A stretch of 64,000 nucleotides of DNA, from NCBI RefSeq assembly GCF_033153115.1, contig NW_026889782.1, forward strand, positions 26,908,001 through 26,972,000, in the 5' to 3' direction. Source of the stretch: Saccostrea echinata (lineage: Eukaryota). Under the pieces are notes generated by a model that had not been told where the DNA came from, ran no database searches, and worked only from the letters and a program-made list of their open reading frames with translations. Positions within the stretch are counted from its first letter, which is position 1, and each line of letters starts with the position of its first letter. The position numbers and the translations under genes are program-made. Below are positions 42,901 through 61,065 of the stretch, in pieces.

Positions 42901-44342
42901 CAACTTTTCTAAATAGAAAATCTAATCTTCCTTAGTATGTACTTAACGGCCAGAGTTACATTTTGTGCGATAATATTAGAGTTCTTCAAAGAATTACTGG
43001 TTATCCTGACTATGAATGTATATTTATCACAAAAATTGCCGATATTTACATTTTTTATATTAACTTTATCTCCGTGACTCTAAAATGAACATTAACCTAG
43101 ACACGGACAAATAGGACATTACTCTTTTCTTTTAAGTTCTGTCAATGAAATTACGATTTGGTGTTTTATCTATTTTTGTAGTTTGCAAGAATATGTGTAT
43201 ATGCCCTTATTTGCACGTTGTAGATCCTAGGAAATTATTAAAATTTAACAAGAAAGAGTTGTAGAATATCCTTATATTCATGAATAATATCAGTGGAACA
43301 GTTTCACGTCCTTTAATTGTTGTTTTACAGGGATTTGTACCTGAGTTCAAGGTTCAGTCATAAGAGAGAAAGCTCTATTTGTAACGGTCAAGATAAAGAG
43401 TTAAGGAGTCAAAATTTGCCTAGCAGGGTATGCTCAAATTGTCATTTTAATTTTCAATTAGATAAGATATAACAGTATAGTATTTAAAAAGCTAACGTTT
43501 ATATAATAGAACAAAGATTGAGAGTGACACAGGGAAAAATATATTGATCTCATCTTCCTCGTTTTGAGATTTAAAAAAGAAAAAAAAGGTTCAGTGCTAT
43601 CACTGCGTGATAAAACATCGTAATTGATAGAAATAAAAGAACTTTCTACGTTTGTACATAAAAAATGTAATTGATATTTCCGTTACTAACTAAACACGTG
43701 ACTATGTTTATGATGCCATACATACATTCTTCCCTTTCAGTAACTCTATATTCTTAATTAATGTTTACGCAAATGCACAGCGCATTTATATCTGTCTTGG
43801 TTTTATACATGGGGTACATTGAGGGATTTTTACTATTCGTCGGTATGGTAAACGAGTTGCGTACAAATGTACATGTACTGATCATACGAATTGGAATACA
43901 AAGACTTCAAATGGCGAAAACGAAGTTGTGTCAACCTTAGTTCAGCCCATAAGTATGTTCAAATGTTGCAGTCATTAATTCACATTACACCGATTACCAT
44001 TATGAACCAAGATTGAAGTGTTTCAAACTGTTACTGAACATTTATCCATCCAAACGATATTCTTGGGCATTGCCTAAATCTTACAAGTTGTTATAATTGC
44101 TGTTTACAGTCAACAACAGAAGATGCTAGCTGCTCACTGAAGAGTTCAATTGAACCACAAGTTACAAGCTTTATGTCTACCGTCATTGTTGTAATCAAAC
44201 AACCGTCAAGCAGTAATCATTTATTGATTTCAACCGGGTATAATTTTAAACGAGACCCATATCTTTTTACGTCTCAAAGCGCAGAAAACGACGTCAAACT
44301 CGCGGTTTTGTAAATATGGAAGTAATTTTTGCCAACTGCGTA

Positions 44343-44686
44343 AGTAGTATAAAGGGGTTTTTTTCGTACCTAGTTTATACGCCCTGTTTTGGCGATACGC
44401 CCTGTTTTCGCTATACGCCTGGTTCTATAAAAGGATATGAGGAATATTGGTTTTCCGATAAACGAAACAGCGGGCAGTCTTTTGTGACCCTGGTTTTGCA
44501 ATAAAAGGATATGAGGAATATTGGTTTTCCAATAAACAAAACAACAGGCAGTCTTTTATGACCCTGATTTCGCTATACGCCCTGTTTTCACGATACGCCT
44601 TTTTTTAACAAGGGTGTATAGGAAAACTTAGTCTTATACGATATGGGTTTTTTTTTCTCCCCTATACTAGAGAGAAACTTAACACC
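44343..44686 (+). repeat. Left TIR of the Polinton
   Basis: Inverse match to 60551-61019; internal ATACGCCCTGTTTT motifs. Confidence 0.92.
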
Positions 44687-45374
44687 CGATTTTATTCGCT
44701 AAGAATTCTCACACCTCTTACCTTATGTGTTCTATATCTTTATTTTGTTAGAGATAGGGGAAAATGTTTAAAATTATTAGTTCGCCAGGCATAAGGCGAG
44801 AAAAACGATAAACTAATGTAAAAATAATATATATATATGGTTATTATTTCTATTAAAATTATTCAATACTAATGTAATTTGGTAAAGATTTTTTTTTTCT
44901 GTTAGTCGAATTTATCGGACCTGTAAGGAACTCTTTAATATGAGAAGGTAAAATTTTGGAATCGTCTGCTGTGTATGTACGGTATTTTGTAAGGTTATTG
45001 TTCCCCCTGCATGGAAAGTAAGCGACAAACACTCAACTCTTAGGGTGTCTTAAAAGGTGTGAAGATTTATGCTATAATCTACACGATTTTTTTTCTGTTA
45101 TTACCAACTCGATTTCACGTCCTGTTATGAGGACAAAAGAGGGTATATTATGTATAGATAACCTACTGACTCGATATTGACAAGGTGGTCTCGATCACTT
45201 TTTGTTACTTTACAATCAACATTAATTCCGAGATGCCCTGCTGAGCTAACGAAACTAATTACTTATCACTTTGCATTATAAACGCTCCTACAATGATTTT
45301 CATCAAAGAGATTCTCAAGGTCTCAGCAAATATTAAAGAGGTTTCGTTTAGACTTGGTTCATTTCATCATCAAA

Positions 45375-46049
45375 ATGGACTGGACAGAGAACATTGATAT
45401 AGATCCTCCAAGGGATGTACTAGAAAAAATTGATAGACTGGAAAGAGCCTACATAGCCAAAGAGGTAAATATTTTTCTTTGTATTATTAAATGTGTCTTG
45501 ATACGAATAATAGATTTACATCAAGAAGATTTTCTTACATATAATCAAAAAAGAAAACGCTAAAATAAAAAAAAAAAAAATCACGCAGTTATTTAGTTTG
45601 ACGATTTTTATCTTAACAAAAATTAAAAGGAAACTGATAGGAAACGGTCAAAAAAAATATCGACTGTTGAGTTTTGGTTCGATAAAACGACATCGATATT
45701 TATTATCGTTTATATTTAAGAGTTGTTTTTACGTGTGATTAATACATTATGGTACTTTTTTTTAAAAAATAACTATGATATTCCTTTATGAAATTTAATC
45801 GGTTTTACATCTAATCATTTTCATAACCGAGTTTAAAAAAATCGTTTAATAATGAGAAAAAAATTTAAGCATCGAAATTTCTTTCTTAGAAATTCAAACA
45901 AAATAGACGAAATGGGGAAGAAAAGAAAGAAGCATCTGAAGTATATATTTTGTTTATATATTTGTTATAGGTATACAAATAAATTAAACAAAAGTTTTGA
46001 ATCGATATTACATGTATAAATATATATATATTTTTTCAATGTTTATATT

Positions 46050-46080
<31 letters not shown>

Positions 46081-46791
46081 AATGACCGAGTTAAAAAGCA
46101 TCGTCTAAAATGGAGAGAAAAAATAAAATTGAAATTCCTTTCTTAGAAATTCAAAGAAAATACTGGAAATGGAGGGGAAAAGAAAGAAGATTCTGAGGTA
46201 TATTTTGTCCGATGTGTAGAAATAATTAAACAAAATGACAAAGAAAAAAAATCTGATAAAACGATTAATTTTTATCATTGTTAATATTTAACAGTTAATT
46301 TTATTGTGTAATTCATACTTTATAGTACATTTTTTTAAAGACCTATGATATACCTTTATGAAATTTAGTCAATTTTCATCTATGTATTTTAATGATCGAG
46401 TTATTAAAGAATTTATAAAATCGAGAGAAAAAAAAATTTAGCATTGAAATTTGTTTCCTAGAATATCGAAGAAAAAAGACCAATACAGAATAAGGACGAA
46501 TCTGAGGTACATTTTGTCTGAATACATTTAATATATGCAACTGTTCACCCAATTTAATCGTGCAATTATTTTATCCTTATACTTACTGTAGAACGAAGAA
46601 AGACGGGTGGGCTTTTTCATGGTTTCATCTAAAAAGAAAAGTCCTGTACGTACCTTTGTCTGGTTGATTACAAGAATTTGTGTATCTATTTTAATCGAGC
46701 AACAAAATCATGCATTTTTTTTTTATTTATTTAGGGAAAAGGAAAGAAATTAACAAAGAAAGACGAGTAGGGCAAAGCGAAGCAAAGTAAG
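45375..46791 (+). CDS. Putative spliced micro-exon gene or pPolB 5' exons (45375-45464, 45890-45940, 46147-46197, 46462-46506, 46592-46645, 46735-); highly charged product
   Basis: Purine-rich blocks bounded by YAG/GT; first four are phase 0 and stop-free; the 3' join is unresolved. Confidence 0.55.
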
Positions 46792-46992
46792 GTATACATG
46801 TATATATATTTACACGTCATCTGAAACATTCCGTTATAGATGAAATTCTTAATCCCTTGTTATAATTTTTTTTTTTTTTTTACGCAGACTCGGAAACCTT
46901 CTCACAAGGTCAAACCTCTGAATTATATAATAATCGATTAAGTTTAGGGTAGTGGGCAGAGTTCTAGAGACAGACCATCGACCTCCTATGAC

Positions 46993-49900
46993 ATGACCTC
47001 AGACGAAACATCACAGAGTTCATTAGACAGACCCTCAACCTCCTATGACACGACCTCTGACCAGGATGAAACATCATCCGACAATGACAGTCAAACGGAC
47101 GATGACCCTGCGTTACAATTCCTACTGAAAAAGTACGAGAGACTCATAAACAGACCCCACCAAGAAGGTGTAATTCAAAAAGAATACAATTTTGCTGCGC
47201 ACAATTTTAATCTTTCTTATGACGATCTCGAAAAACAATTGAACGACATATACCAAACTGAAAAGCATGCCTTTAAAATCAACTTTTCTCTCGGAATTGT
47301 GTTGAGAAACACGGAAGGCGAACTGCGATATTTTTATGCTTCTGGAAATGACTCCTTGTTAAACGAACCTTATCAGATATCAAATAAGAAAGACTTAGAT
47401 AATTTAATCTTGATTTTAAGGAACAAAGATCTTTTGCAGATAGCGTTACAGTCGCGCCCGAACTCAAAATGGAGCGTTTATGTCGTCACAAACATTAGAT
47501 CGGTGGTCGTCAGAACGAATTATATTTTAGGGGCGGGTCGTAAGCTACCGGACTATGTCAAAAATAAAAAGTGCATTATCGCACTGAACACCAACAGCGT
47601 CGATGGTAGTTTAATTGAAGACAATTTATGTGCTTTCCGATGCTTGGCTTACCACCGAACACAAAATAGGAAAGGTCTAGAAAGACTTACTTTGAAATAT
47701 TACAGAGAATTTTTTGGCCATAGGGTAACCAAACGTACCAAATTTAATGGGCTCACCCTTGAGGACATTCCTCATTTCGAAAACAATTTTGATATCAATG
47801 TCAATATATTTCAATTGTTCGAGGACCAAACCTGCGTCCACATTTATCGTTCACGTGGAGTGTTTCAAGACACGATGAACTTAAACCTATTCGAAGACCA
47901 TCTCAGCTACATAAAAAATCTAGATGTGTATTGTAAGAAGTACGAGTGTCGAAATTGTAAAACTCTTTTCCCCACACAAGGTAAAGTCACCCGCCATGAA
48001 AAACGCTGCAAAGAGGCTACTAGGTTCATATATCCAGGGGGTTACTATGCCCGACCGCGACATATTTTTGAAGAACTCGAATATTTAGACAGTAAAGTAG
48101 ACAATGACTTGCGGTTTTATCCTTTTTTCATTACATATGATTTTGAAGCGATTCTTCAAACAGATGATCTACCCCCCGCGACACAAAAATCTACTTGGGC
48201 TCAAGAGCATCGACCCGTATCATTTTCGATATGCTCCAATGTTCCGGGACATGTAGATCCCGTTTGTCAAATGGATTCGGACGTCAATAGCTTAATTCAA
48301 AAGTTTGTACTTGCCGCAAGTAAAATACAGTCTACAGCTCAGAAGTACATGCGAGCCCGTTTTGCAAATGTTTTGAAAAAGCTTTCCCTCGAATCTAAAA
48401 AATTACAAGAACTTTCTGAAGAAATCTTACATAGAGACGATGACAGTGATGACGAGGATGACGATGACGACGAGAGACAAGCCATAAACACGCCCCTTTT
48501 ATGTCACATTAAACGAATACAGGCCAAACTCGACACTTACATCAATGAGATACCGGTCTTAGGGTACAATAGTTCCAAGTACGATTTGAATTTAATAAAA
48601 ACCAAATTTGCGGAATGTTTGAAACTACCTCAAAGTAAGAAAAATTTTGTTGTTAAAAAGTGCAATCAGTACATGTGTATTAGTAATGGCCAATTCAAAT
48701 TTCTAGATATCAGTAATTTTGTAGCACCAGGGTTTTCCTACGACATGTTCATCAAATCCTACGAAATAGAGTTGCATAAATCGTTTTTTCCTTACGAGTT
48801 TCTCACGTCGTTTGATAACCTGGAGCATACGCAGCTTCCACCCTACGAAGCTTTTTACTCTTCCCTTAAAAACTGTAATGTGCTAAACGAAGAACACGCG
48901 CGATTTCGTCGCTTAGTCGTCGACGAACAACACCCCGTTGCCGTCGCATTGAAAAAAATGAATCTAAAGAAACCGCCTCCTACCGGACCGGAGAATTACG
49001 AAAAACTTCGCGCTTTATGGGAGGAACGCGGCATGCGCACTCTCAAAGATTATCTCGAATATTACAATAATCTGGACGTACTTCCCTTCTGTCAGGCGGT
49101 GTCAAAGATGCTCCGTTTTTACACATCGCGGAATATTGATCTATTTAAGACATGCCTCAGCGCGCCCGGGGTAGCAAGGGAAATCATTTTTCAATCTGCC
49201 GCCGGAAAAGGACATTTCGCGTGCTTTGATGCCCAAAATAAAGACTTGTATAGTATCTTTGGGAAGGGAATGTGTGGTGGTCCCGCCATCATTTTTCATC
49301 GCTACCACGAGAGGTATAAAACATTCATTCGGAAAAATGTCAACCAAATTTGTAAGAAAATCGTAGGGTACGATGCTAATGCCTTGTATTTATGGGCACT
49401 CAGTCAAGACATGCCCACCGGTCCTTTTACTATTAGAAAAGAAGAAAACAATTTTCAGCTAGTCAAACGAGATCGCTATTTAAAAGCTTTGTATTTCTTA
49501 GAATGGTTAAGACACAGTCGAGGTGTCAATATTGATCATTACTTTAACGCGGGCAAAGAGTTCCGTATTGGTCCGTATCGAGTAGACGGTTATTCTAGAG
49601 CAGAGAAAAAAGTATACGAATTTAACGGTTGCTACTTTCATCGACACAAATGCGCTCTGACTGCTCACATTCAGGACCCTAAATGGTTAAAGGATCAAAA
49701 AAAAGTTCAGAAACGCGAGCAAGAGCGAACAGAATACATTAAAAACCAAGGCTATGACATAGAAATCACCTGGGAATGCCAATACGAGAATTGGTTAAAA
49801 ACGTCCCCCGAATTTAAAAGATTTATTGAAGAGCAACGCCGAAAGCGCCCTCTAGAACACCGAACGACATTAACCAAGTCTGAAATCTTAACCGCCATTC

Positions 49901-51075
49901 GCGAGAAAAAAATATTCGGCGCCGCAGAAGTCGATATACACGTCCCCGATCATCTTTTAGACAAATTTCAAGAAATGTCCCCCATTTTTTGCAATGCCGA
50001 AATTCCATTTGAAGCTCTCGGACCATATTCTCAGGAAACGGCACAAAAATTAAATTTGGGAGAAAAACCGCGACGGTTATTAGTCGGAGGTATGCGCGCG
50101 CGTAAAATTCTACTGGCTACCCCTCTCTTAAAGTGGTATTTAGAACACGGTCTTATCGTTTCGCGCATATATCAAGTTATAGAATTCACCCCTAGCCCCT
50201 GTTTTTCCGATTTTACGAGCGAAGTTAGCAATGCTCGTCGTCGCGGTGATAGTGATCCGCGTTTTGAAATATTCGCGGATACCATGAAACTCATTGGAAA
50301 CAGCGCGTACGGATCAATGATCATGAATAAAGAAAAACACACGGAAATTACTTATTGTGCGACGAAAGAAAAAGCAGGATGTTTTGCCTCTAAAAAACGG
50401 TTCCGAACATTGACCGAACTCAATAATAATCATTTCGAAATCGAGCTTGCTAAATCGCGCATAAACTTGGATTTACCAATACAAATAGGATATTTCGTGC
50501 TTCAATATGCCAAGCTGCGTATGCTCGAGTTCTATTATGACTGCGTCGATAAATTTTGTAGCCGTCAAGATTTCGAATTGATGTCCATGGACACAGACTC
50601 TCTATATATGGCCATATCAGCTGAAAAGTTTGAGGACATAATTAAACCCGACATGAAACCCCTTTTCAAACGGGAAAAAAATCAATGGTTTCCTCGCACA
50701 GAACCTGTTGAGGCGGCATCCTTTGATCGTCGCGAACCTGGTTTGTTTAAGGAAGAGTTTGTAGGGACGGGCATGGTAGCCCTTTGCAGCAAAACCTATT
50801 GCGTGGAAAATAATCTAGAACTTAAAAAGAGTAAATTCAGTTGTAAAGGTTTAAATAAAAACAATTTCAGCCACCCTCTGTCTTTATATAAACGTGTATT
50901 GTTCGATAATACCACGGCCGGTGAGACGAATCGCGGTTTCCGCGCCCGAAATAACACGATCTTTACTTACACTCAACGACGACAGGGACTGACTTCTTTT
51001 TATCCTAAGCGCAAGGTCTTGTCTGACGGAGTGTCGACAACCTATCTTGAAATGGAACTGTGCCCATGGGACTAG
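46993..51075 (+). CDS. pPolB: Protein-primed family B DNA polymerase with N-terminal TP/vOTU-like region, Zn finger and internal VSR-like nuclease
   Basis: Exo motifs YDFE, YNSSKYD, YNNLDV; pol motifs YDANALY, KLIGNSAYG, MDTDS; DNLC..H; CRNC..H...C; YRVDGY..YEFNGCYFH. Confidence 0.97.
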   Translation: MTSDETSQSSLDRPSTSYDTTSDQDETSSDNDSQTDDDPALQFLLKKYERLINRPHQEGVIQKEYNFAAHNFNLSYDDLEKQLNDIYQTEKHAFKINFSLGIVLRNTEGELRYFYASGNDSLLNEPYQISNKKDLDNLILILRNKDLLQIALQSRPNSKWSVYVVTNIRSVVVRTNYILGAGRKLPDYVKNKKCIIALNTNSVDGSLIEDNLCAFRCLAYHRTQNRKGLERLTLKYYREFFGHRVTKRTKFNGLTLEDIPHFENNFDINVNIFQLFEDQTCVHIYRSRGVFQDTMNLNLFEDHLSYIKNLDVYCKKYECRNCKTLFPTQGKVTRHEKRCKEATRFIYPGGYYARPRHIFEELEYLDSKVDNDLRFYPFFITYDFEAILQTDDLPPATQKSTWAQEHRPVSFSICSNVPGHVDPVCQMDSDVNSLIQKFVLAASKIQSTAQKYMRARFANVLKKLSLESKKLQELSEEILHRDDDSDDEDDDDDERQAINTPLLCHIKRIQAKLDTYINEIPVLGYNSSKYDLNLIKTKFAECLKLPQSKKNFVVKKCNQYMCISNGQFKFLDISNFVAPGFSYDMFIKSYEIELHKSFFPYEFLTSFDNLEHTQLPPYEAFYSSLKNCNVLNEEHARFRRLVVDEQHPVAVALKKMNLKKPPPTGPENYEKLRALWEERGMRTLKDYLEYYNNLDVLPFCQAVSKMLRFYTSRNIDLFKTCLSAPGVAREIIFQSAAGKGHFACFDAQNKDLYSIFGKGMCGGPAIIFHRYHERYKTFIRKNVNQICKKIVGYDANALYLWALSQDMPTGPFTIRKEENNFQLVKRDRYLKALYFLEWLRHSRGVNIDHYFNAGKEFRIGPYRVDGYSRAEKKVYEFNGCYFHRHKCALTAHIQDPKWLKDQKKVQKREQERTEYIKNQGYDIEITWECQYENWLKTSPEFKRFIEEQRRKRPLEHRTTLTKSEILTAIREKKIFGAAEVDIHVPDHLLDKFQEMSPIFCNAEIPFEALGPYSQETAQKLNLGEKPRRLLVGGMRARKILLATPLLKWYLEHGLIVSRIYQVIEFTPSPCFSDFTSEVSNARRRGDSDPRFEIFADTMKLIGNSAYGSMIMNKEKHTEITYCATKEKAGCFASKKRFRTLTELNNNHFEIELAKSRINLDLPIQIGYFVLQYAKLRMLEFYYDCVDKFCSRQDFELMSMDTDSLYMAISAEKFEDIIKPDMKPLFKREKNQWFPRTEPVEAASFDRREPGLFKEEFVGTGMVALCSKTYCVENNLELKKSKFSCKGLNKNNFSHPLSLYKRVLFDNTTAGETNRGFRARNNTIFTYTQRRQGLTSFYPKRKVLSDGVSTTYLEMELCPWD

Positions 51076-51384
51076 TCCATTGTTTGTGTATATACCCCCT
51101 TTGTTTTAGTCCATAGAATAGCCCTCCGGATGAGTCCATTTTTAGGGGAAGGGGAACTAACTTTTATGTTAATTTGTTATGTCCCTATATTTTGACTAAA
51201 ATTTTATAAATTTGTAAATTAAAGACAATGATAACAAAGATAGTATTCATTGTAAATAAATAAAAACTGAATATATTTTTTTCCGTTTATATATAAAAGA
51301 AAGGTTATAACCCTGCCTCCTCCTCACCCCTTCTTTTTCCCATCACCCTTAGTTTTTTAGGTTTCTTGTGTTTTATTGAGGAGG

Positions 51385-52297
51385 ATGGCGACGTTAATGA
51401 TTCTGCTTAGTTTAGTGTTTGTGGTACAGGGAGATTTTTCGAAATCTTGCCTATCTAAGGGAAAAGTTCTCCTCTGTGAGAAGGTTGAGGGTAATCTAAC
51501 ATGTCAGAATGCCGGAGTCAAACTGCTGAATGCTGAGAGACTTGTAATGACAAATCCCAAGATTGAGAAAGTGGACATCACCAGCCAGTGCCTCCCCAAG
51601 CTGCGGACAGTTGAAATCGTGAGATCGGGGATGATGAATTGTTCTGACTTTGCAACGTTCTCACTGGTCATCATCAACAGGAGAGTTTGTGTATACACAG
51701 TAAGTTCATTTTTTTTTTCGATGTAATTATTGTATATTTCTGTATTTATTTTTATTATTATATTTTGTAAAACTCATATTAATAAGACATAATATTTCAT
51801 GTAGACATCCAGCACACCACGGATCGTCTCAGGAAAACCTCCAGCAGACTCGAAGAGCTCGTCGTCAACAACTGCAGTGACTCCGTACAATGTGACGGTC
51901 ACCATGGTGACAGAGACCACTACTGTGGAGAACGCGACCCTGCAGTCAACACTGCATTTCTTCCCAAGAGACAGCGACAAAACAAAAGAAGGTACTTACT
52001 TAAAATTCTATTTATGATGGCATGCATAATTACATGCATATGATTATTACGTTTTTTTAAAAAAAAATAATAATAATAATATTTTTACATGTAGATGTGG
52101 CGTTACGGGCAGTCGTCATTACTCTCAGTATTTTATCCGTATTACTGATCATCCTGGTGTTTGTCCTGTTGAAGTGGAAACGTTGTAGACGTAGTCGAGG
52201 AAGAAAACTGCCGATGGCTGAGGATCTGGGGAGTTCTGAAGTGGTGTTCCTGCGTTCAGCAAGCAGGAATCCGTACTCCGAAACAAAGTTTGAGTGA
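51385..52297 (+). CDS. Three-exon type I membrane glycoprotein, 234 aa (exons 51385-51699, 51805-51991, 52095-52297)
   Basis: GT-AG introns, phases 0 and 1, splice in frame; signal peptide, 6-Cys domain, S/T stalk, TM helix, basic tail; TATATAAAA at ~51290. Confidence 0.85.
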
Positions 52298-52750
52298 CTT
52301 GACATTTTGACTCTCTCTCATTCTGTACAGTGATTTTATTTTTTTTTTTTCCTAATTGTATGCTATTTTTGATGATAAAGCGTTATGTGCTATATGTAAA
52401 ACAAGATAGTTATTTTTCTTTTTTTTTTTTTGTAGCGTATTTTAATATTGAAGTGATTTTTCTGTTTGGTATTTTTTTTTCTTTAAAACATTTGCTTTTT
52501 AACTTATATGGAGAATCTTAGCGATTACCTTTTATATATTTTTTTTCAAAACAATATTTGCTGTTTTATTTAAAAAAAAAAATGTTATTAACATTTAATC
52601 GATAACAACAAATTATCAGAGTTATTTTGCGCAATCCAATAATTGTGTACATAAAAATAAACCTGCTTTTTAGTGTGGCATATTTTCCATTTGAATAATT
52701 AAAACACACAAGTTTTCTGACTTTCTTTTATTACTGTTGTTATATTACAA

Positions 52751-52933
52751 TCACAAGGACATCCATTTGCTGGGAATTTTCACGCCTGGTGGGGCATCCT
52801 TTCTTCCAGCGACACCTAGTCTTTTTGTCAGTGGTTTTTCCGGAGATTTCTGTGTCGTTTTTGTACTCACAGCGGGTACTGCTTTCAGTCGCTGGTACTC
52901 ATCTTTAGGTATTAACACGAACTCAGTGGACAT
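52751..52933 (-). CDS. Small Polinton protein
   Basis: MSTEFVLIPKDEYQRL start, overlaps the stop of the upstream gene in the minus-strand block. Confidence 0.55.
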   Translation of the reverse strand: MSTEFVLIPKDEYQRLKAVPAVSTKTTQKSPEKPLTKRLGVAGRKDAPPGVKIPSKWMSL

Positions 52934-53243
52934 ATTTTGCAAGGTCTGGAAGCAAAGGTTTTAGTAAGACAGGAAGAAATCCGTGGCGTCGGAGTAACAG
53001 ATTCTTTTTGTTTCTGCCCTTCTTCTTAGCTAATCGACGCAGAATATGTCGATACTTGTAGAGATTTTTGATGAAGGATTCGGAGGGTAAAATCTCACGA
53101 TTATGAATAACGTTATAAATCACTTCTAAGAGAGTCTTTAACTGCTTGACACTGATCGTCTTTAATAACACTCGGCGTTGTCTGACGCTTGTAGTGGCTA
53201 GCTAGTTTAAAAAGGCCCAGTTCTGACGAAGGCGGTCGCTCAT
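52923..53243 (-). pseudogene. Basic Polinton protein with in-frame TAG at 53204-53202
   Basis: ATG overlaps the ATPase stop (ATGA); MSDRLRQNWAFLN*LATTS..QLKTLLEVIYNV. Confidence 0.7.
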
Positions 53244-53908
53244 GTTTTTCTCATGTAAACGATCAATAGGTCACCTGGAAATATCCCTGTGCGCAGCGCA
53301 TAATCTCTGCGTCCGCTCACGGATAGGTCCACCAATAAATAAGAATAAGGTTTTTGCGTCGCCTTTTCATATGCGTCGAGAAAATACGACTTGTTTTGCG
53401 GATAGAGTTGGGTAGCTAAGAATTGAACTTGAAAATTATCTCGGGGGTTTTTGAAAAGAACGAGGTATTGACAATTTAATGAAATGACTCGACTGTACTT
53501 GCCTTGAGGAAACAAATTTTGAGAAATAAATATGACAGATATATTCATATGATGCACGTGAATAGTAAATAACTCCATATAATCAAAGGACTGAATGACT
53601 CGGTATACTAGATCATCCAAAACGAGTAAGAATTCCCCGCTCTGCGCAAATTCCTCCAGGTCTTGTTTTGAGGGTAAACCCTCGTAAAATATAACAGATG
53701 AATTGTGGTCCCGTATTTCTTGAAAAGCCGGTTGCCATTTTGAATACGCATACACAATCTTTTTAAGCGGTTTTGATAGAATCCCTTTGTCAAGATTATC
53801 TAAGATTCGTTGCGTAAATCGAGTTTTGCCACTCTGACTGGGACCACTCACAAACAAAGAGAAAGGCACCTTCAAAGCAAAATCACTGGGGTTCATGGTT
53901 TCATTCAT
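53240..53908 (-). CDS. A32/FtsK-like genome packaging ATPase
   Basis: Walker A GPSQSGKT, Walker B LLVLDD, FISQNLF, SLNCQYLVLFKNPRD. Confidence 0.95.
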   Translation of the reverse strand: MNETMNPSDFALKVPFSLFVSGPSQSGKTRFTQRILDNLDKGILSKPLKKIVYAYSKWQPAFQEIRDHNSSVIFYEGLPSKQDLEEFAQSGEFLLVLDDLVYRVIQSFDYMELFTIHVHHMNISVIFISQNLFPQGKYSRVISLNCQYLVLFKNPRDNFQVQFLATQLYPQNKSYFLDAYEKATQKPYSYLLVDLSVSGRRDYALRTGIFPGDLLIVYMRKT

Positions 53909-53955
53909 TTATTTCTTTTTTAATCTCAACATTTGACTTATATACAGACACAAAG

Positions 53956-54198
53956 ATGAATCACGACTCAATGTGGGGTATAAGAGAAAATGTGGATGTC
54001 AACTGGAAAGGAAAACGAAAAATCAGATGTCATATTGACACGTCTCATTTTGTAACTGTGTCTAGGAGAAAAAATCGGTATTACGTTAAAATCAGGAAAG
54101 GGAAGCGAGATCTTTCCTTATCGCCTGAGATGTGGGCTGTGATATGCGATCTAAAAGAAACGGTGTTACTGTGTTGTAATTTTTTGGAAACTAGTTAA
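53956..54198 (+). CDS. Small PC4-like protein
   Basis: FVTV....YVKIR....LSLSPEMW resembles PC4 YVSV....IDIR...ISLNPEQW. Confidence 0.6.
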   Translation: MNHDSMWGIRENVDVNWKGKRKIRCHIDTSHFVTVSRRKNRYYVKIRKGKRDLSLSPEMWAVICDLKETVLLCCNFLETS

Positions 54199-54200
54199 AA

Positions 54201-55331
54201 ATGGTTTTATCCGCGGAACTACGAGACTATTTAACTTCATTGTATTTCAACCCCGAAAAACCGGGAGCATTCAGAAGTCCGCTTCAGTTATGGCGACAAG
54301 AAAATCAGTATAAGATCGGGCTACCCAGAATTAAGCAATGGTTACAAAATCAAGATGTCTATTCAATGAACAGAACCGTACGTCGTCGTTTTAAGAGACC
54401 ACGGGTTTTCACGGGTGGAATAAAAGATCAGTATGACGCCGACTTAATGGATGTCGGATTTCACTCCAAAGAAAACGATGGAATCAAGTATTTATTGGTT
54501 GTGATCGACGTGTTTACTCGTTATGTGTGGGTATGCGCACTGAAAAATAAAACGAGCTCCAATGTATTAAAAGGTCTCAAAAATTGTTTTCAAAACTTGG
54601 GTTTTCCTCGCAAAATAAGAACAGATGCCGGAAAGGAATTCACGGCACATCTCGTTCAAAATTATTTAAAATCAGTCGAGGTTACACACTTTACTACTCA
54701 AGGAGAATCGAAGAGCAACTTTGTGGAACGCGTAATCAGAACACTGCGCAGTTTAATGCACAGATATATGAAAAAGACGCGTTCGTTTAGATATATTGAT
54801 AAACTACAGACATTGGTAACGAATTACAACCACACCCCTCATAGATCGTTGGGTTATAAAGCACCGAGTGAAATTAATGAGACTAATGAAGTCGATCAAA
54901 TTATTTTGCAATATTTTAAACCTCCTGTCAAGCGGAAAATAAAGAAAGTATCAAAACTGGCCAAGAAATTGCGATCGTCTTTTCGATTTAAGGTGGGTGA
55001 TACTGTGCGCATATCGCATTTGAAACATGTGTTTGAAGGCGAATTCATGGAGAAATTTACTGGCGAAGTGTTTAAGATAAAATCCCGATTTTTGAAACAA
55101 AATATCCCAATGTACAAGCTACAGGATTTAAGAAACGAAGATCTGACGGGTAGTTTTTATGAACAAGAACTACAGAAAATAGAAAAACCGGAAGACACAT
55201 TGTGGGAAGTGGAAAAAATATTGCGTAAAAGACGTCGAAATAATCAGACTTATGTTCTTATTAAGTGGTTGAATTTCCCTCGAAGTTTTAATAGTTGGGT
55301 GCCAGAGAGAGAAGTACAAGAGCTGGTTTAA
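54201..55331 (+). CDS. INT: Retroviral-like (rve) integrase with C-terminal chromodomain
   Basis: ADLMD, IDVFTR, TDAGKEF, VERVIRTL; WEVEKIL...VLIKW......NSWVP. Confidence 0.97.
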   Translation: MVLSAELRDYLTSLYFNPEKPGAFRSPLQLWRQENQYKIGLPRIKQWLQNQDVYSMNRTVRRRFKRPRVFTGGIKDQYDADLMDVGFHSKENDGIKYLLVVIDVFTRYVWVCALKNKTSSNVLKGLKNCFQNLGFPRKIRTDAGKEFTAHLVQNYLKSVEVTHFTTQGESKSNFVERVIRTLRSLMHRYMKKTRSFRYIDKLQTLVTNYNHTPHRSLGYKAPSEINETNEVDQIILQYFKPPVKRKIKKVSKLAKKLRSSFRFKVGDTVRISHLKHVFEGEFMEKFTGEVFKIKSRFLKQNIPMYKLQDLRNEDLTGSFYEQELQKIEKPEDTLWEVEKILRKRRRNNQTYVLIKWLNFPRSFNSWVPEREVQELV

Positions 55332-55335
55332 AGAA

Positions 55336-55728
55336 ATGGATTATTACATGGTCATTTCAGAGACAGACTTTTTAAATTATTATCCAAATAATACGCCTAA
55401 TGATTTCCGCGTTCACACGCCGAACACTAGGTTAAGGGGTCGGTGGTACGTGGGGCTCTGCGAAATGAGTATTGAAGTAGAACGGGAATGTGAAATATTA
55501 ATACTGTCGGATATCTGTTCAGATACACTGGTAGGGGGTGAGAAGAAACCTTTATTAAAGAGAATGAGGTTACAGAGTGGACAAAATGACGTCGCGTTCC
55601 AGCGCATCATGTATATTCCTATCGTCGTGACCGATTTTCATTCCATCAGAGTATATCTGGAGAGCCCAGTACTAACAAAACCAAAGGTGACTTTTGTGCT
55701 TCATTTTAAAAAATATCCTTTCATTTAA
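55336..55728 (+). CDS. PX: Minor capsid protein (penton, single jelly-roll), minimal form
   Basis: YPNNTPNDF ... WYVGLCE ... SDI....VG....PLL ... YIP ... VLHF. Confidence 0.85.
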   Translation: MDYYMVISETDFLNYYPNNTPNDFRVHTPNTRLRGRWYVGLCEMSIEVERECEILILSDICSDTLVGGEKKPLLKRMRLQSGQNDVAFQRIMYIPIVVTDFHSIRVYLESPVLTKPKVTFVLHFKKYPFI

Positions 55729-55730
55729 GC

Positions 55731-56057
55731 ATGCGCTCTTCGAAAGTGTATGTGGCAGACACGAAGAAATGGACAGATTTTTTTGTTAGTACGGCCGCTA
55801 CGCCCATTTCACATAATTCGTTACGACAGAGTGGGGGGAACTTGGGAAACGGCAGCATTAATACCACTGCCATAGTACCCATTGATTCCGGTCGCAACTT
55901 GCGAGGTGGGGGGGAAAGTCCCTCACCGGAAATCACCCTCGTCTCGCCCACACAACGAGATTTACAACAAGCCAAGTCAGAATTGCGTCGCGTAAAGCCT
56001 AAAAAGAGGAAAAGGACGTGTAAAAAAGCTAAACATTCCGATAATTTTGATTATTAA
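55731..56057 (+). CDS. Small basic protein, candidate core protein or protease substrate
   Basis: QSGG and LRGG motifs, LVSP, K/R-rich C-terminus; tightly packed in the structural block. Confidence 0.6.
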   Translation: MRSSKVYVADTKKWTDFFVSTAATPISHNSLRQSGGNLGNGSINTTAIVPIDSGRNLRGGGESPSPEITLVSPTQRDLQQAKSELRRVKPKKRKRTCKKAKHSDNFDY

Positions 56058-56058
56058 G

Positions 56059-56502
56059 ATGGAACCCGAAAGAGATGTCGCGTCGGATCTCATGATTAGA
56101 AAGAAACAATACGCAAGAGCCGTCAAAGTCACCGGAGTGTTGTTACTGCTGATACCGTTTTTCATTGTATTTGGAATGACGATAGACATTTGGAATAACA
56201 CACAGGCCTCTCCCCTGACCGTTAACGATACCAGAGCTTTTAACGCGACTCTCTGCGATTTTTTAAAATCGTTTCCTTTGACTGAGGCGGTGCATGTTAG
56301 CGTCTGCGTTTATCAGGGCTCCGTTCTAATTGATTTGAGACGTTTTTTGAATAATAAACCAACGATTAAAGGAATACAATTAAACCCCATTCAATGGCAG
56401 TACCTGAAAAGAATTTGGCCTTACATCGATCAGAGCTTAGTGCTGGCATCGAGACGCGATTTCTCTGCGCATAAAAGGGCAGAGAAGACTTCTCACAGTT
56501 AA
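56059..56502 (+). CDS. Membrane-anchored PC4-domain protein (147 aa)
   Basis: Basic N-terminus, TM VTGVLLLLIPFFIVFGMTI, sequons NNT/NDT/NAT, then VSV..YQGSVLIDLRRF...PTIKGIQLNPIQW..LK.....ID. Confidence 0.85.
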   Translation: MEPERDVASDLMIRKKQYARAVKVTGVLLLLIPFFIVFGMTIDIWNNTQASPLTVNDTRAFNATLCDFLKSFPLTEAVHVSVCVYQGSVLIDLRRFLNNKPTIKGIQLNPIQWQYLKRIWPYIDQSLVLASRRDFSAHKRAEKTSHS

Positions 56503-56510
56503 GATCCAAA

Positions 56511-57821
56511 ATGACGAGTCACGCATACGAAGACATTCAGGAAGGATTGCCCAGGGAACTACTGTTGTTTAATTTACCAGTGACGCAGACAGCTGTGACT
56601 CGTAACTATTACGTAGATTATAGACCCGTTTCTCAGATAAGCGAAAACGGACCCGTAGAATTCAGCGTACCCGGGACAGGAGATTATCTGGACTTTAAAA
56701 AAAGTTTGTTATATGTTAAAGCGCGAATCCTCAAAGCGAATGGTTCAGCTCTTGAGGCGGACGAGAAAGTCGGTCCTGTGAATAATTCTTTGCACAGTTT
56801 CTTTAATCAGGTGGACATTTCGTTAAACGGGAAACAGTTCCCGAGTAGTGGCGGGGCGGCCTATGCTTATAAAGCTTACCTACAGAATTTGTTAAATTAC
56901 GGAGAAGAGGCAAAACAATCCCAGCTTCAATGTAGCTTGTTTTTCAAGGATGATGCTGGTTATATGGATGTCGCGGACCCTAACGGTGCTAATTCCGGGT
57001 TGTACTCGCGCACCGTTTTCTGTTAAGAAAGTTCGTCTTTTGATTTAGAAGGGCCCATTTTAGAAGATGTGTGTCGACTCGATCGTTTTGTGTTAAACGG
57101 AGTAGACGTTAACATCAAATTGTATAGACAAAACTCGTCGTTCTGTCTCATGTCCGCCGAGGCGGATCCGCAGTACAAAATTGTCTTTGATGACGTCATA
57201 TTCCGGGTTTGCAGAGTACAGGTGTCGCCAGGTATCATAGTGGGGCACACAAAGGCTTTAGAAACGACTACAGCTAAATATCCCTTGATTAACACAGACG
57301 TAAAAGTGGCCTCTATTGCTGCAGGGCAAACCCGATTCATCTGGGATAACATTTATTTGACCCGCTGTCCCAGTAAAATCGTTCTCGGACTGGTCTCTAC
57401 GGAGGCCCAGACAGGGAGTTATGTGAAAAACCCTTTTAATTTTCAAACCTTTGGCGCTCGTCATGTCGGCGTATTTGTCAATAATGTGAGTGTTCCCGGG
57501 CAGCCTTATAAAATAGAAGAAAACTGTTACATCTCAGCTTACCACAGTTTATTTGATATTGTCGACAAATCCCAAATCGATTCCGGAAACAATATTGATC
57601 GAGACGATTGGAAGTATGGCTACTGCCTTTACGGCTCTTCGTTACAACCCCAGTTTGGAAACACAGATACCCTTTCTTTAATGAATCAAGCAAGCGTTCG
57701 ACTAGAACTAGCCTTCGAGCAGGCACTGACAGAAACCGTTTCCTGCATCCTGTATGCTGAATTCCCCTCTTTTTTTGAGATAGACAATACTAGAAATGTA
57801 ATTCTTAACTCTATATCATGA
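56511..57821 (+). pseudogene. PY: Major capsid protein (double jelly-roll, 436 codons) with a single in-frame TAA at 57024-57026
   Basis: LLLF..P.TQ, GPVEF, PVNN.LHS.F.QVD, YAYKAYLQNLLNY, NGVDV.IKL, GSY.KNPFNF; ORFs 56511 and 57069 share a frame. Confidence 0.93.
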
Positions 57822-58279
57822 ACGGATACCTCATTTCTGACCTATGTCGTTTAGATTTAGTTTTAGCTTCCCAGTTTGAGGGTGTATTTTCTCCGGATAA
57901 TTTACCTTTGAATGTTGACCACTATCCCCGTGCTTATATCGTTAACACTACATTTTCTACTACAGCCGGAGAACACTGGATAGCACTCTATTTTAGTTCT
58001 TCTCAACACTGTTACGTATTTGATAGTTATGGTAGGGACCTGAGTAGTTTGCCGTCTCAGATACACTCCTTTGCTGCTCGCAATTCATTTTCATGTACAT
58101 ATAATACGCTTATAATGCAAGACGTAGCTAGTCAAACGTGTGGACTGTATTGTATATTATTCATGCTAGTAATGAGTAGAATCTGTAATCTATCTGTATT
58201 TCAACGACTCTTTTGTGATGACTTGATCCAAAACGATGTTTTTGTGTACCGCATTCTTTATACATTATACAATCTTTGA
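57818..58279 (+). CDS. PRO: Adenain-like cysteine maturation protease
   Basis: GEHW, FDSYG, Q.....TCGLYC catalytic motifs; ATGA overlap with MCP stop. Confidence 0.95.
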   Translation: MNGYLISDLCRLDLVLASQFEGVFSPDNLPLNVDHYPRAYIVNTTFSTTAGEHWIALYFSSSQHCYVFDSYGRDLSSLPSQIHSFAARNSFSCTYNTLIMQDVASQTCGLYCILFMLVMSRICNLSVFQRLFCDDLIQNDVFVYRILYTLYNL

Positions 58280-58490
58280 GCTTTATCTCTCCTTCTATAT
58301 AGTACAATAAACTGATAACACCTTTGTGACAGATTTTATTTAATGATAAGAAAAAAAAATATATTGAGTGACAGATTTTATTTAATGATGAGGAAAAAAT
58401 ATACATAGTACAATAATTCTCAGAGTCTCTTTACATAAAACGCCACTGTTATATACACAGTAAAAAGTATAGTCCAACAGAAAAAAAAAA

Positions 58491-59192
58491 TCACTCAGAT
58501 AATTTAGACAGTTCAGATTGAAAGGCCTGGTCCTCCCTAGCATCGCGCAGGTATTTCTCCCCGTCCGATTCATCCCCATTGATTTCCTCGAACTCCCTCA
58601 CAATGACATCTTCCGGAATATTGTTCATACAATCTTGAAGGTACATGTCCCTCTTTTCCTCCCACGAAGATAGGCAGCCCATTTCCATGTGCTGTTTCTG
58701 GCTGGGATGATCCGTCAGGCATCCGTGGCAACGTTCCTTAGATTTACACGAAACCATCTTCCTCAGGATTTTCGTGATGATGGATTTCATGCACTGATCC
58801 ATCTGCTCGACTTCTTGATATGTCTCTTGGAATTTTCCCCATTCATTTTCGTTGAGTGCGATGCCAAATTTAGTAGGAAGGGCTGGATCTACGTGGAAAT
58901 TAAACACTCTAAAGTCCACGATGATAACGTTGCTGTCGGGGAATCTCTTCGCCGTTACCCGCTTGTTTCCCTCCTCGTTTCTCTGTAAGTCCCAAGTCTT
59001 AGACGGCGTTGAAGAGTTTTCTCTCAGTTTCTTTACATGCGCGTGAATTTCACTGATAATGTTTATCAGCAGCAACCACTCGGAGGCGGAGAAGGATATT
59101 TTCTTTTCCGGTTGGTCCACATTGTTCAGTCTTATTCTCTTCTCTTTCTGGTAGATGCCAGTCGTGAAAGTGATTCGCTCACTCAGGAACAT
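58491..59192 (-). CDS. Tandem PC4-like domain protein with C-terminal Cys/His motif
   Basis: KISFSASEW and IVDFRVF.....PTKFGIALNENEW PC4-like repeats; CHGC..DHPSQKQH...GC; first ATG at 59192. Confidence 0.8.
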   Translation of the reverse strand: MFLSERITFTTGIYQKEKRIRLNNVDQPEKKISFSASEWLLLINIISEIHAHVKKLRENSSTPSKTWDLQRNEEGNKRVTAKRFPDSNVIIVDFRVFNFHVDPALPTKFGIALNENEWGKFQETYQEVEQMDQCMKSIITKILRKMVSCKSKERCHGCLTDHPSQKQHMEMGCLSSWEEKRDMYLQDCMNNIPEDVIVREFEEINGDESDGEKYLRDAREDQAFQSELSKLSE

Positions 59193-59204
59193 GATTAATG
59201 TCGT

Positions 59205-59236
59205 ACTGAAAATGACTAGTGTGAAGGTTTTAAATA
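59205..59236 (-). promoter_or_regulatory. Putative TATA + Inr core promoter
   Basis: TATTTAAAA (59236) lies 29 nt upstream of the A in TCAGT (59207), just before ATG 59192. Confidence 0.45.
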
Positions 59237-59285
59237 ATATCCAGGCTGTGATGTCATCGGTCAAAAGGTGTTAAACTATATGATG

Positions 59286-59723
59286 TCATCTATATCCAAT
59301 CACAGTCCAGCTTAATTCCTGGCGGTGACGTCGGCGCATTTTTCTAACAGCTATGTCCATTCTTTTAAAGAAATGTTCCGGAGTGAAAAATCGTTCCTCG
59401 TCGAAATATTCTGAGAATATTTCTCGAAAGCATTCAATGATATTACATCCCATATGGCATGTAGAGGTCTCGTGCCAGGGCAAATCCAGGTCCTCGACTG
59501 TTTGTCCTCGGTCTATCCAGACTCTGCAATTGATGGCCTCTTGTGTAATCATTAAATTACGCGCGATTCTCGATAGCAATTGTGGTCTTTCAAATTGTCT
59601 AGATTTTTTGATGTAATAATATACATCTTCGTAAATCTGCTTCTCTCTGTCAAACAAACTTAACTCCAGTGAGAAACTAGCTAGATCTCGCAAAGGAAGA
59701 ACTTCGGTAAACATACGATACAT
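59286..59723 (-). CDS. Polinton hypothetical protein (145 aa)
   Basis: ATG-initiated ORF with the composition of the neighbouring viral genes; no recognised motif. Confidence 0.6.
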   Translation of the reverse strand: MYRMFTEVLPLRDLASFSLELSLFDREKQIYEDVYYYIKKSRQFERPQLLSRIARNLMITQEAINCRVWIDRGQTVEDLDLPWHETSTCHMGCNIIECFREIFSEYFDEERFFTPEHFFKRMDIAVRKMRRRHRQELSWTVIGYR

Positions 59724-60550
59724 GATCAGTAATATTTGTGTTGGTTTGCATCTGTTTCTTTTATTCAGATTCGCCCTTATTGATTAGTTTTCCGATTTCC
59801 CACAATATTCTAAAAGAAGAAATTCCATAATAATAGAAAAAGTCTTTTATGTCTTACAAGTCGTTAATATAACGCATACTTGGGACCGTTGCTCGTAACA
59901 ATAATTTTTTTCTCACCTTCCGTTGATGACCACATTTAATTACCTGTTTTAACCCATAGGGGGTCAAGTACATTTTCTTATCTTTTGATATAAAATACTT
60001 TTGTTATATAACGGTATTCACGATTATTGATTCATTCCACGATTTCTCAAAGGGAAAGAGATTCCATAATAAAAGAGTTGTTAATGTAATGTCTAGTTGA
60101 AAAGTTATTCGGAACAATAACTTTTTCTCACCTTCTTATGGTCGTTGCTTGTCTACTCAGATTTAATTAACTGACTTTACCTAGTATGAGATGTCAAATC
60201 TTCTTCTCTTCATTGCATTGTACTTTCCTACAATTTCTTACGAGTTCTGATCAAAATCGGTGACAGTTACTTTCTCTTTGGAGGGTTAACTGCATTTCAC
60301 CTAACGGTTTGAAATTTTCTGTAGCAATGGGTAATAATTGATTGTGAACATCATTTTTATTACGAAGTATGTAGATACTTTTAATAATCACATTCTGCTG
60401 TTTTCCTTTATGAAATCATTCTAAAATCAAATGTATATCTTTGAACGTTTAGAAATTTTTACTGAAATTAAGTGCTTCGTTTAATCCTGGTTCAACTGTG
60501 TATTTCATTCTATTCAGTTTAATTATACTACAAGTTTCTATTGTAAACAA

Positions 60551-61019
60551 GGTGTTAAGAATTGCTCGACTAGTATAGTGAGGAAAAAAATGTATAAGAT
60601 TCCGAAAACACCATCTCATAGTGAAAACAGGGCGTATAGCAAAACCAGGGTCCCGAAAGACTGCATGCTGTTTTCTTTATTAGAAAACTAATATTCAACA
60701 TTAAGTTTCCTTATACATCCTTGTTAAAAATAAGGCGTATCGTGAAAACAGGGCGTATAGCAAAACCAGGGTCCCGAAAGACTGCATGATGTTTTCTTTA
60801 TTAGAAAACTAATATTCAACATTAAGTTTCCTTATACATCCTTGTTAAAAATAAGGCGTATCGTGAAAACAGGGCGTATAGCAAAACCAGGGTCATAAAA
60901 GACTGCCCGCTGTTTCGTTTATCGGAAAACCAATATTCCTCATATCCTTTTATAGAACCAGGCGTATAGCGAAAACAGGGCGTATAAACCAGGTACGAAA
61001 AAAACCCCTTTATACTACT
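60551..61019 (-). repeat. Right TIR of the Polinton, including 121-bp tandem repeats
   Basis: Inverse match to the left end; units start at 60621, 60742, 60863. Confidence 0.92.
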
Positions 61020-61065
61020 TGCGTATCCTAAACAAGAAATAAAATTATTGGATTTCCACGGGTAA

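Follow-up and report, generated by a model that had tools for sequence, protein, structure and literature searches.

A spliced type I membrane glycoprotein gene of oyster Polintons with a predicted LRR-like ectodomain and a recurrent C-terminal K-x-[D/E] motif

The Polinton element and its glycoprotein gene

The window analysed here is a stretch of 64,000 nucleotides from the oyster Saccostrea echinata, and it contains a Polinton/Maverick element with the following features.

44343..61019, Polinton/Maverick element of 16,677 bp; ends AGTAGT...ACTACT, TIRs of ~260 nt, TSD TGCGTA at 44337-44342 and 61020-61025
46948..51075, + strand, open frame of the protein-primed family B DNA polymerase (pPolB), 1375 aa; no Pfam match
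53240..53908, - strand, packaging ATPase; Pox_A32, E 4.4e-06
54195..55331, + strand, rve integrase with chromodomain; Pfam rve
55996-56502, + strand, PC4-like (PF02229) gene 1; a hydrophobic N-terminal segment precedes the PC4 domain
56475..57821, + strand, major capsid protein gene, a name assigned from its position without a Pfam match; in-frame stop at 57024-57026
57809..58279, + strand, adenain-type protease; Peptidase_C5, E 3.5e-08
58491-59270, - strand, PC4-like (PF02229) gene 2; Pfam

The original prediction, made from the letters of the DNA, had placed a membrane glycoprotein gene inside a Polinton, and this residence is supported, as the enclosing element has TIRs, (AGT)2//(ACT)2 ends and a 6-bp TSD, and its integrase, packaging ATPase and adenain protease are recognised by Pfam. 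The open frame at 46948..51075 was named from PolB motifs and we take it to be pPolB; homologues of the pPolB and capsid genes, neither of which has a Pfam match in the window, sit together in other elements. The end motif and TSD of the element at 44343-61019 match the rule reported for Mavericks (PMC8097293). Upstream of the pPolB open frame, the start of this gene (45367-46947) apparently comprises several small exons with AT-rich introns between them, and one run gave a joint 46507->46744 with 7 extra letters in this region. At the right end of the element (60618-60900) there are about three tandem copies of a TIR-related unit of ~121 nt, more than at the left end, and outside the Polinton tandem arrays of 166-168-nt and 128-nt repeats lie at 12671-16198, 24003-26043 and 29348-36791.

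The glycoprotein gene starts 310 nt downstream of the pPolB stop, and its parts are as follows.

51385..51699, + strand, exon 1, 315 nt; predicted signal peptide (51385-51432) and 89-aa six-Cys ectodomain with a predicted LRR-cap-like fold; phase 0 donor
51700..51804, + strand, intron 1, 105 nt; GT..AG (GTAAGT..ATGTAG), skipped in 5/5 runs
51805..51991, + strand, exon 2, 187 nt; Ser/Thr-rich stalk with two sequons, ends in phase 1
51992..52094, + strand, intron 2, 103 nt; GT..AG (GTACTT..ATGTAG), phase 1, bridged by single contigs
52095..52297, + strand, exon 3, 203 nt; TM helix (~52103-52171), basic Cys-containing juxtamembrane patch, 41-aa cytoplasmic tail and stop
52211..52252, + strand, tail motif P-x-A-E-[D/G]-L-G-S-S-[E/D]-x-x-F; conserved, acidic, Ser-rich
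52286..52294, + strand, C-terminal K-F-E; matches the KXD/E COPI-binding Golgi-retention motif (PMC4642860)
52298..52719, + strand, 3' UTR; AATAAA at 52656, X1 and X3 contigs end at 52717-52719

From the ATG at 51385, three exons joined at GT-AG borders give a product of 234 aa, and the splice sites proposed earlier (51699/51805 and 51991/52095, in frame) were borne out by the exon model and by spliced contigs. The exon-per-module layout proposed with them also held, with exon 1 starting hydrophobic and containing six Cys, exon 2 having a Ser+Thr content of 39%, and exon 3 showing a hydropathy peak of 3.28 (19-residue window) followed by a basic patch. The GC content is 0.44, 0.52 and 0.47 in exons 1, 2 and 3, and 0.16 and 0.18 in introns 1 and 2. 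A motif scan recovered all four sequons that had been listed (NLT, NCS, NVT and NAT). The proposed type I topology is supported in the same way, since hydropathy and motif scans find an N-terminal signal peptide, one TM, a basic stop-transfer patch and luminal sequons, all conserved in alignments; the signal peptide and the TM of the 234-aa product are predictions from these scans and from the family alignment. Pfam gave no match for exons 1-2 and only generic TM matches for exon 3.

The joint 51699->51805 (GT..AG) was seen in contigs of 5/5 public runs from two studies (four runs and X3), the RNA status of these runs being judged from the splicing as none is on record as RNA. Intron 2 fell outside the joints table owing to a repeat filter and was read instead from single contigs, which break off at 51990 and continue from 52094 in X1, X2, X3 and X4 (the last with only 22 nt on one side), and which break at 51987/52098 in X5. 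The break lies one base off the predicted cut because the same G stands on both sides. No intronless copy appeared in the genome search. The exon 2 of sister copies carries an in-frame 9-nt indel, and every contig over position 51878 has the 9-nt insertion that is present in the sister copies L002 and L003 and absent from the window copy; therefore, transcription is established for the family and not for the window copy. Their contigs give little or no cover over the ATPase, integrase, capsid and protease genes, which carries no weight here because these runs were chosen with the glycoprotein gene. One spliced contig of X3 spans 50815-52719, from the 3' end of pPolB through the glycoprotein gene, which fits overlapping transcripts and read-through alike.

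The TATA box noted upstream fared less well, since the TATA-like run at 51288-51297 is indeed present but adjoins the pPolB AATAAA and is absent in 6/6 copies of other subfamilies, so a role as conserved promoter was dismissed. For the window copy, an alternative last exon starting behind the AG at ~52330 was dismissed as well, because it opens an AT-rich poly-T frame which the contigs cross as UTR.

Distribution and divergence of the family

An exon-1 homologue lies downstream of pPolB at 12/12 loci of the clade, taken as the 12 loci with the best pPolB-end matches (E 2.2e-29 or better). These loci fall into four subfamilies with three or four exons and an exon 1 (ectodomain) identity of 37-100%; six appear intact, and the genes at the other six are disrupted by stops, frameshifts or the loss of an acceptor. 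In nine gene models, 20 of 21 introns have GT-AG borders, intron 1 is in phase 0 in all nine and the last intron is in phase 1 in eight. A lack of spliced reads together with unconserved splice sites had been named beforehand as grounds for abandoning the gene, and the opposite was found on both counts. The same can be said of an independent insertion with its own TSD that is missing from related elements: between the flanks of the gene there is no direct repeat of at least 10 nt and no inverted repeat of at least 12 nt, and all 12 clade loci carry the gene.

Several database proteins belong to this family. The RefSeq oyster protein P0045 is exactly the exon translation of the sister locus L016 (108+65+1+67 = 241 aa), the M. 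gigas proteins P0037, P0051 and P0065 have the same architecture as the window glycoprotein, and the uncharacterised oyster proteins XP_061192281.1, XP_065934690.1, XP_065928196.1 and K1PN46 are members with the same architecture and tail end. A mucin-like stalk and N-glycosylation sites are present in every full-length relative checked. Further exon-1 matches (L025, L027, L029 and L030) and several exon-3 matches are fragments; some have Polinton remnants nearby, and L006, L007, L008, L025 and L027 have no Polinton core genes within ~10 kb. Genome searches with single-protein queries found no intact copy outside a Polinton. No longer relatives were found via a single exon or via a profile, a type of search that gives weak evidence here, and none was found among the viral contigs scanned. 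A plant LRR protein (P0006) and a bacterial repeat protein (P0011) were rejected as relatives because their E-values come from 12 summed repeats. Contigs C5 and C36 of G000 have many gene fragments in common, in nearly identical sets, which suggests segmental duplication of decayed Polinton pieces. Taken together, the glycoprotein gene is a real, element-borne and long-standing accessory gene of oyster Polintons, and not a one-off insertion.

The comparison of substitution rates that had been proposed across Polinton copies gave pS 0.78 and pN 0.20 for exon 1 between subfamilies A and B, and pS 0.65 and pN 0.07 for pPolB. The ectodomain dN is 3-4 times the pPolB dN (0.24 vs 0.08; 0.50 vs 0.12), with a Fisher p of 6e-17 on rounded counts. 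These values indicate that exon 1 is under purifying selection and changes faster than pPolB, and because synonymous sites are saturated between subfamilies, in exon 1 as in pPolB, they preclude a test of positive selection.

More distant relatives occur as well. A remote version with four Cys and the same exon plan was found in 8/20 regions of 20 kb around distant pPolB genes; the other 12 regions gave no ectodomain match, and some elements extend beyond 20 kb. The remote members begin with a signal-type segment and have a GT donor placed one codon past the final Cys, then a Ser/Thr exon whose end is in phase 1, and a TM exon. Four of them had scored weakly at first and were then used to seed the profile, which makes their later E-values circular; L142, L134 and L154 were unseeded at first scoring and gave E 2e-4 to 4e-3. 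A profile-profile match between the remote and near groups reached Prob 86.6 and E 4.5e-06 over 72 columns. The remote genes of L160 and L156 lie inside TSD-flanked elements, and for one remote member the genome gave 36 matches. The distant paralogue L043 lies beside the protease gene in a Polinton with a capsid and an ATPase that share only 33-36% identity with those of the window element. Ectodomains of near and remote lineages are only 15-25% alike, and the ectodomain and pPolB trees split the near and remote groups alike, with long and poorly placed branches. Cys40 and Cys69 are jointly absent from L043 and from the remote group, and this joint loss suggests that the pair forms a disulfide.

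Two further observations concern these distant lineages. At G000:C33 ~24,003,000-24,012,600 (L043, L053), a distant Polinton carries a tandem duplicated glycoprotein gene and a PC4-like gene, and in this lineage neither the K-x-[D/E] end nor the middle Cys pair is present. In several remote members (L160:3400-3570 on the + strand, L142, L144, L151, L134, L139, L154 and L156), a second phase-1 acceptor follows right after the stop of the TM exon, and the frame past it encodes a short hydrophobic run and a basic Pro-rich tail, mostly with (L/I)RRSTR. This has the appearance of an alternative last exon that would produce a second membrane isoform.

Predicted ectodomain fold and the C-terminal tail

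The structure prediction and fold search that had been suggested for the ectodomain gave an AlphaFold2 model of the 89-aa window ectodomain with a pLDDT of 89.4; a remote member with its own alignment reached 92.9, and the two models have a similar order of strands and helices. With Foldseek, the window ectodomain matched FSHR, GPIb-beta, VLR and LGI1 with a best E of 0.07, which is below significance, and the ectodomain models overall gave sub-threshold E-values in the range 0.07-0.3. VIA-align found GPIb, TrkA/TrkC, LRIM1, TLR3/5 and Slit (rmsd 2.7-3.8, 75-82 aligned, all Z under 8), the best scores being those of GPIb 3rfe with Z 5.3, rmsd 3.4 and 82 aligned, and TrkA 7n3t with Z 6.4, rmsd 2.7 and 75 aligned. 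The top structural matches are mostly animal extracellular LRR N-termini (cap and first turns), and a language-model (Atlas) search gave LRR clusters at 0.90-0.91 beneath an unnamed top row, with a recognition score of 1913 against a threshold of 2300. The fold matches listed for the ectodomain are LRR-type, and E3-19K and fusogen structures do not occur among them. At the sequence level, Pfam LRR families match 0/18 family members, the alignments have no conserved Asn at the position expected from the canonical LxxLxLxxNxL, and a PDB sequence search gave at best E 2.3-2.4, to TLR2-VLR hybrids. A viral fold library gave nothing at E 0.001 or better.

The models predict a disulfide-capped LRR-like mini-solenoid on a stalk. 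GPIb-beta, VLR, LRIM1 and the N-termini of TrkA, TLR and Slit share with the oyster model a disulfide hairpin cap and, after it, a short parallel beta solenoid, and GPIb-beta also carries a minimal LRR ectodomain on one TM. The differences from these animal LRR proteins are a Z of 5-6.4, a Foldseek E of 0.07 or worse, an identity of 10-20%, and the lack of a Pfam LRR match and of an Asn ladder. The LRR-like character that had been read from the sequence therefore keeps the weak but consistent structural matches on its side and loses the family match; with all fold scores sub-threshold, LRR-like describes a consistent lead and not LRR membership.

The second conserved feature is the C-terminus. 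The window copy ends in KFE followed by the stop, with K at -3 and the acid at -1 of the predicted cytosolic C-terminus, and K-x-[D/E] before the stop ends 16/24 distinct tails, these being distinct sequences picked by tail motifs and related to each other, so the counts overstate independence. The endings are TKFE, MKQE/SKQE, FKND, FKSD and VKLD, with LKTE in the M. gigas proteins; across these about six distinct endings, residues -4 and -2 vary, and the K and the acid persist. As controls, 1/59 other Polinton gene ends and 4/418 open stretches have a K-x-[D/E] end. The eight tails with other ends comprise six of the near group, a remote tail with a frameshift and a tail that was probably picked in error, and among the six, five are in fragments or broken copies and one is in the otherwise intact L015, which ends in QFE. 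The motif is likewise missing from the L043/L053 lineage, which stands outside the 24-tail count. Among the tails listed, those with K-x-[D/E] have one Lys (-3) and none at -4/-5, and are not dilysine signals of the KKxx/KxKxx type.

A KXD/E motif at the cytosolic C-terminus has been reported to bind COPI and to keep proteins in the Golgi of plant, yeast and human cells; it restored the Golgi location of a truncated Rer1p, and tags added at the C-terminus mask it (PMC4642860). The tests described there used multi-pass and not single-pass proteins, in organisms other than molluscs (PMC4642860). EMP/TM9SF proteins likewise carry a C-terminal K-x-[D/E] in the cytosolic tail (PMC4642860); they are multi-pass host proteins, whereas the oyster protein is single-pass and encoded by a mobile element, and the role of its motif is predicted. 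Since the terminal K-x-[D/E] is conserved, Golgi retention is favoured over surface display, and from the KXD/E literature we consider COPI-dependent Golgi residence of the oyster Polinton glycoprotein somewhat probable.

Possible functions and relation to known systems

We propose, with a probability of roughly 0.45, that the protein is a Golgi-held type I glycoprotein whose LRR-like luminal domain binds and holds back a host protein in transit, by analogy with adenovirus E3-19K and with no kinship to it. The glycoprotein would enter the ER via its predicted signal peptide and be glycosylated, the terminal K-x-[D/E] would bind COPI so that the protein is held in the Golgi, and the small LRR-like luminal domain would bind a host secretory client and retain it in transit. 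On this scheme the client would be an innate-immune receptor or a virus-entry receptor, and a defence or entry receptor is the most plausible choice, which is speculative. To our knowledge, oysters lack MHC-I. E3-19K retains MHC-I in the ER by luminal binding and a Lys-based tail, and like the predicted oyster protein it is a small type I glycoprotein with a luminal binding domain, a TM and a Lys-based C-terminal retrieval signal, in a virus of the same broad lineage (PMC12714902). In contrast to E3-19K, which has a dilysine ER signal and binds MHC-I, the oyster protein combines an LRR-like domain and a mucin stalk with a tail that has just one Lys, at -3, and ends in an acidic residue, and no sequence or fold link between the two was seen among the fold matches listed. 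The original prediction had offered four functions, an E3-like immunomodulator, a superinfection-exclusion factor, a fusogen or a captured host receptor, and the E3-like reading gains most among them because the conserved K-x-[D/E] points to Golgi retention; the fusogen loses ground with an ectodomain of 89 aa, and a recently captured host receptor does so as every intact copy found lies in a Polinton. Against Golgi-held client retention stand the 8/24 tails and the L043/L053 lineage without the motif, the sub-threshold fold scores, and the facts that the contigs match sister copies and that the capsid gene of the window element is broken. A mucin-like stalk is also more typical of surface proteins.

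This last point leads to an element-borne glycoprotein of the cell surface or recycling pathway, such as a decoy receptor, an adhesion factor or a superinfection-exclusion factor, in which K-x-[D/E] only tunes recycling or is another trafficking signal. The stalk and N-glycosylation sites of all full-length relatives checked, a fold closest to surface LRR receptors, the motif-free L043/L053 lineage, and an ectodomain evolving at 3-4 times the rate of pPolB, which would be expected of lineage-specific exclusion factors, are in keeping with such a role, but K-x-[D/E] is kept across lineages whose ectodomains are only 15-25% alike and positive selection is not demonstrated where dS is saturated, and we regard a surface role as possible though rather unlikely. 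A Golgi-resident factor of virion assembly or exit, which would recruit capsids to secretory membranes or join a transient envelope for non-lytic spread, is improbable. It would suit the Golgi-type tail, the retention of the gene by several Polinton lineages at different map positions, the possible second basic Pro-rich tail of remote members, and the type I glycoprotein of nematode Mavericks, which have been proposed to be enveloped (bioRxiv 2022.07.12.499685); however, 12/20 distant-clade regions (some elements exceeding 20 kb) have no ectodomain match, fusion machinery is lacking, and vertebrate Mavericks are described with intronless core genes and such a gene is not reported for them (PMC8097293).

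Spliceosomal introns and a layout of one exon per module are reminiscent of host genes, nematode Mavericks are known to carry cargo with introns (bioRxiv 2022.07.12.499685), and five fragments lack Polinton core genes nearby (L006, L007, L008, L025 and L027), all of which might point to a host receptor gene recently captured as passive cargo, or to an independent insertion. These fragments are broken or partial, though, and every intact copy found sits in a Polinton; the gene segment has no TSD or TIR of its own, synonymous sites are as saturated between subfamilies as in pPolB, and the near/remote split is identical in the ectodomain and pPolB trees. Recent capture is thus already largely refuted and very improbable, and an ancient capture from a host LRR gene, which is distinct from passive cargo, is possible. 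A fusogen is the least credible of all. Small FAST-type fusogens with polybasic tails exist, which counts for this role. The signal peptide and single TM are as in MFUS-1 of nematode Mavericks, but an 89-aa LRR-like ectodomain in a protein of 234 aa is far from the large gB-like ectodomain of the 866-aa class III MFUS-1 (bioRxiv 2022.07.12.499685), and the cleavable-type signal peptide, long glycosylated stalk and retention-type tail speak against fusion as well.

Compared with known Polinton cargo, the oyster gene has both parallels and distinct features. Nematode Mavericks encode the gB-like type I glycoprotein MFUS-1 and carry intron-bearing cargo, so a signal peptide with a single-TM protein and intron-containing genes inside the element are common to both systems (bioRxiv 2022.07.12.499685). 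Both a membrane glycoprotein and introns in a Maverick therefore have a precedent in nematodes; those of vertebrates have been reported as intronless (PMC8097293). MFUS-1 is described as a herpes gB-like fusogen whose transcription was not detected, and the nematode cargo as host proteases and kinases (bioRxiv 2022.07.12.499685), whereas the oyster gene encodes 234 aa, is spliced, belongs to a transcribed family and was found intact only in Polintons. Adintoviruses also carry membrane-related accessory genes of animal Polintons, with the membrane-active classes PLA2X, GasderminX and Cupiennin, and none of the classes in section 3.2 of that paper is described as a spliced type I glycoprotein (PMC8502044). 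The words 'glycoprotein', 'splic-' and 'oyster' are absent from its main text, and the unnamed 'Adintoc' genes of its supplements might include the oyster gene (PMC8502044). Our literature searches, judged from their listings, returned no description of the oyster family. The family is apparently undescribed, and its kind, a viral accessory type I glycoprotein with a COPI-type tail, is already known.

In conclusion, a spliced accessory gene family is kept across deeply split Polinton lineages in oysters, the family is transcribed, and its products carry a terminal K-x-[D/E] that can be tested cheaply. Polinton accessory genes have mostly been read as intronless ORFs, which hides spliced ones, and several 'uncharacterised' oyster proteins can now be reassigned to a mobile-element family. 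In its boldest and quite doubtful form, our reading would make this an ancient, spliced and expressed gene which oyster Polintons share and use to evade immunity. Its product would be a small LRR-like bait with a tail for COPI retention, by which a Toll-like receptor, another LRR receptor or a receptor for viruses is caught in the Golgi. Such a protein would do the job of E3-19K in hosts that have no MHC, and alternative last exons may let some lineages alternate between two cytoplasmic tails. Animal Polintons may live as viruses that manage host defences. If the glycoprotein is retained in the Golgi together with a host client, it would mean that a Polinton controls the secretory pathway in the manner of E3, and the protein could then serve to isolate an invertebrate protein involved in defence or entry.
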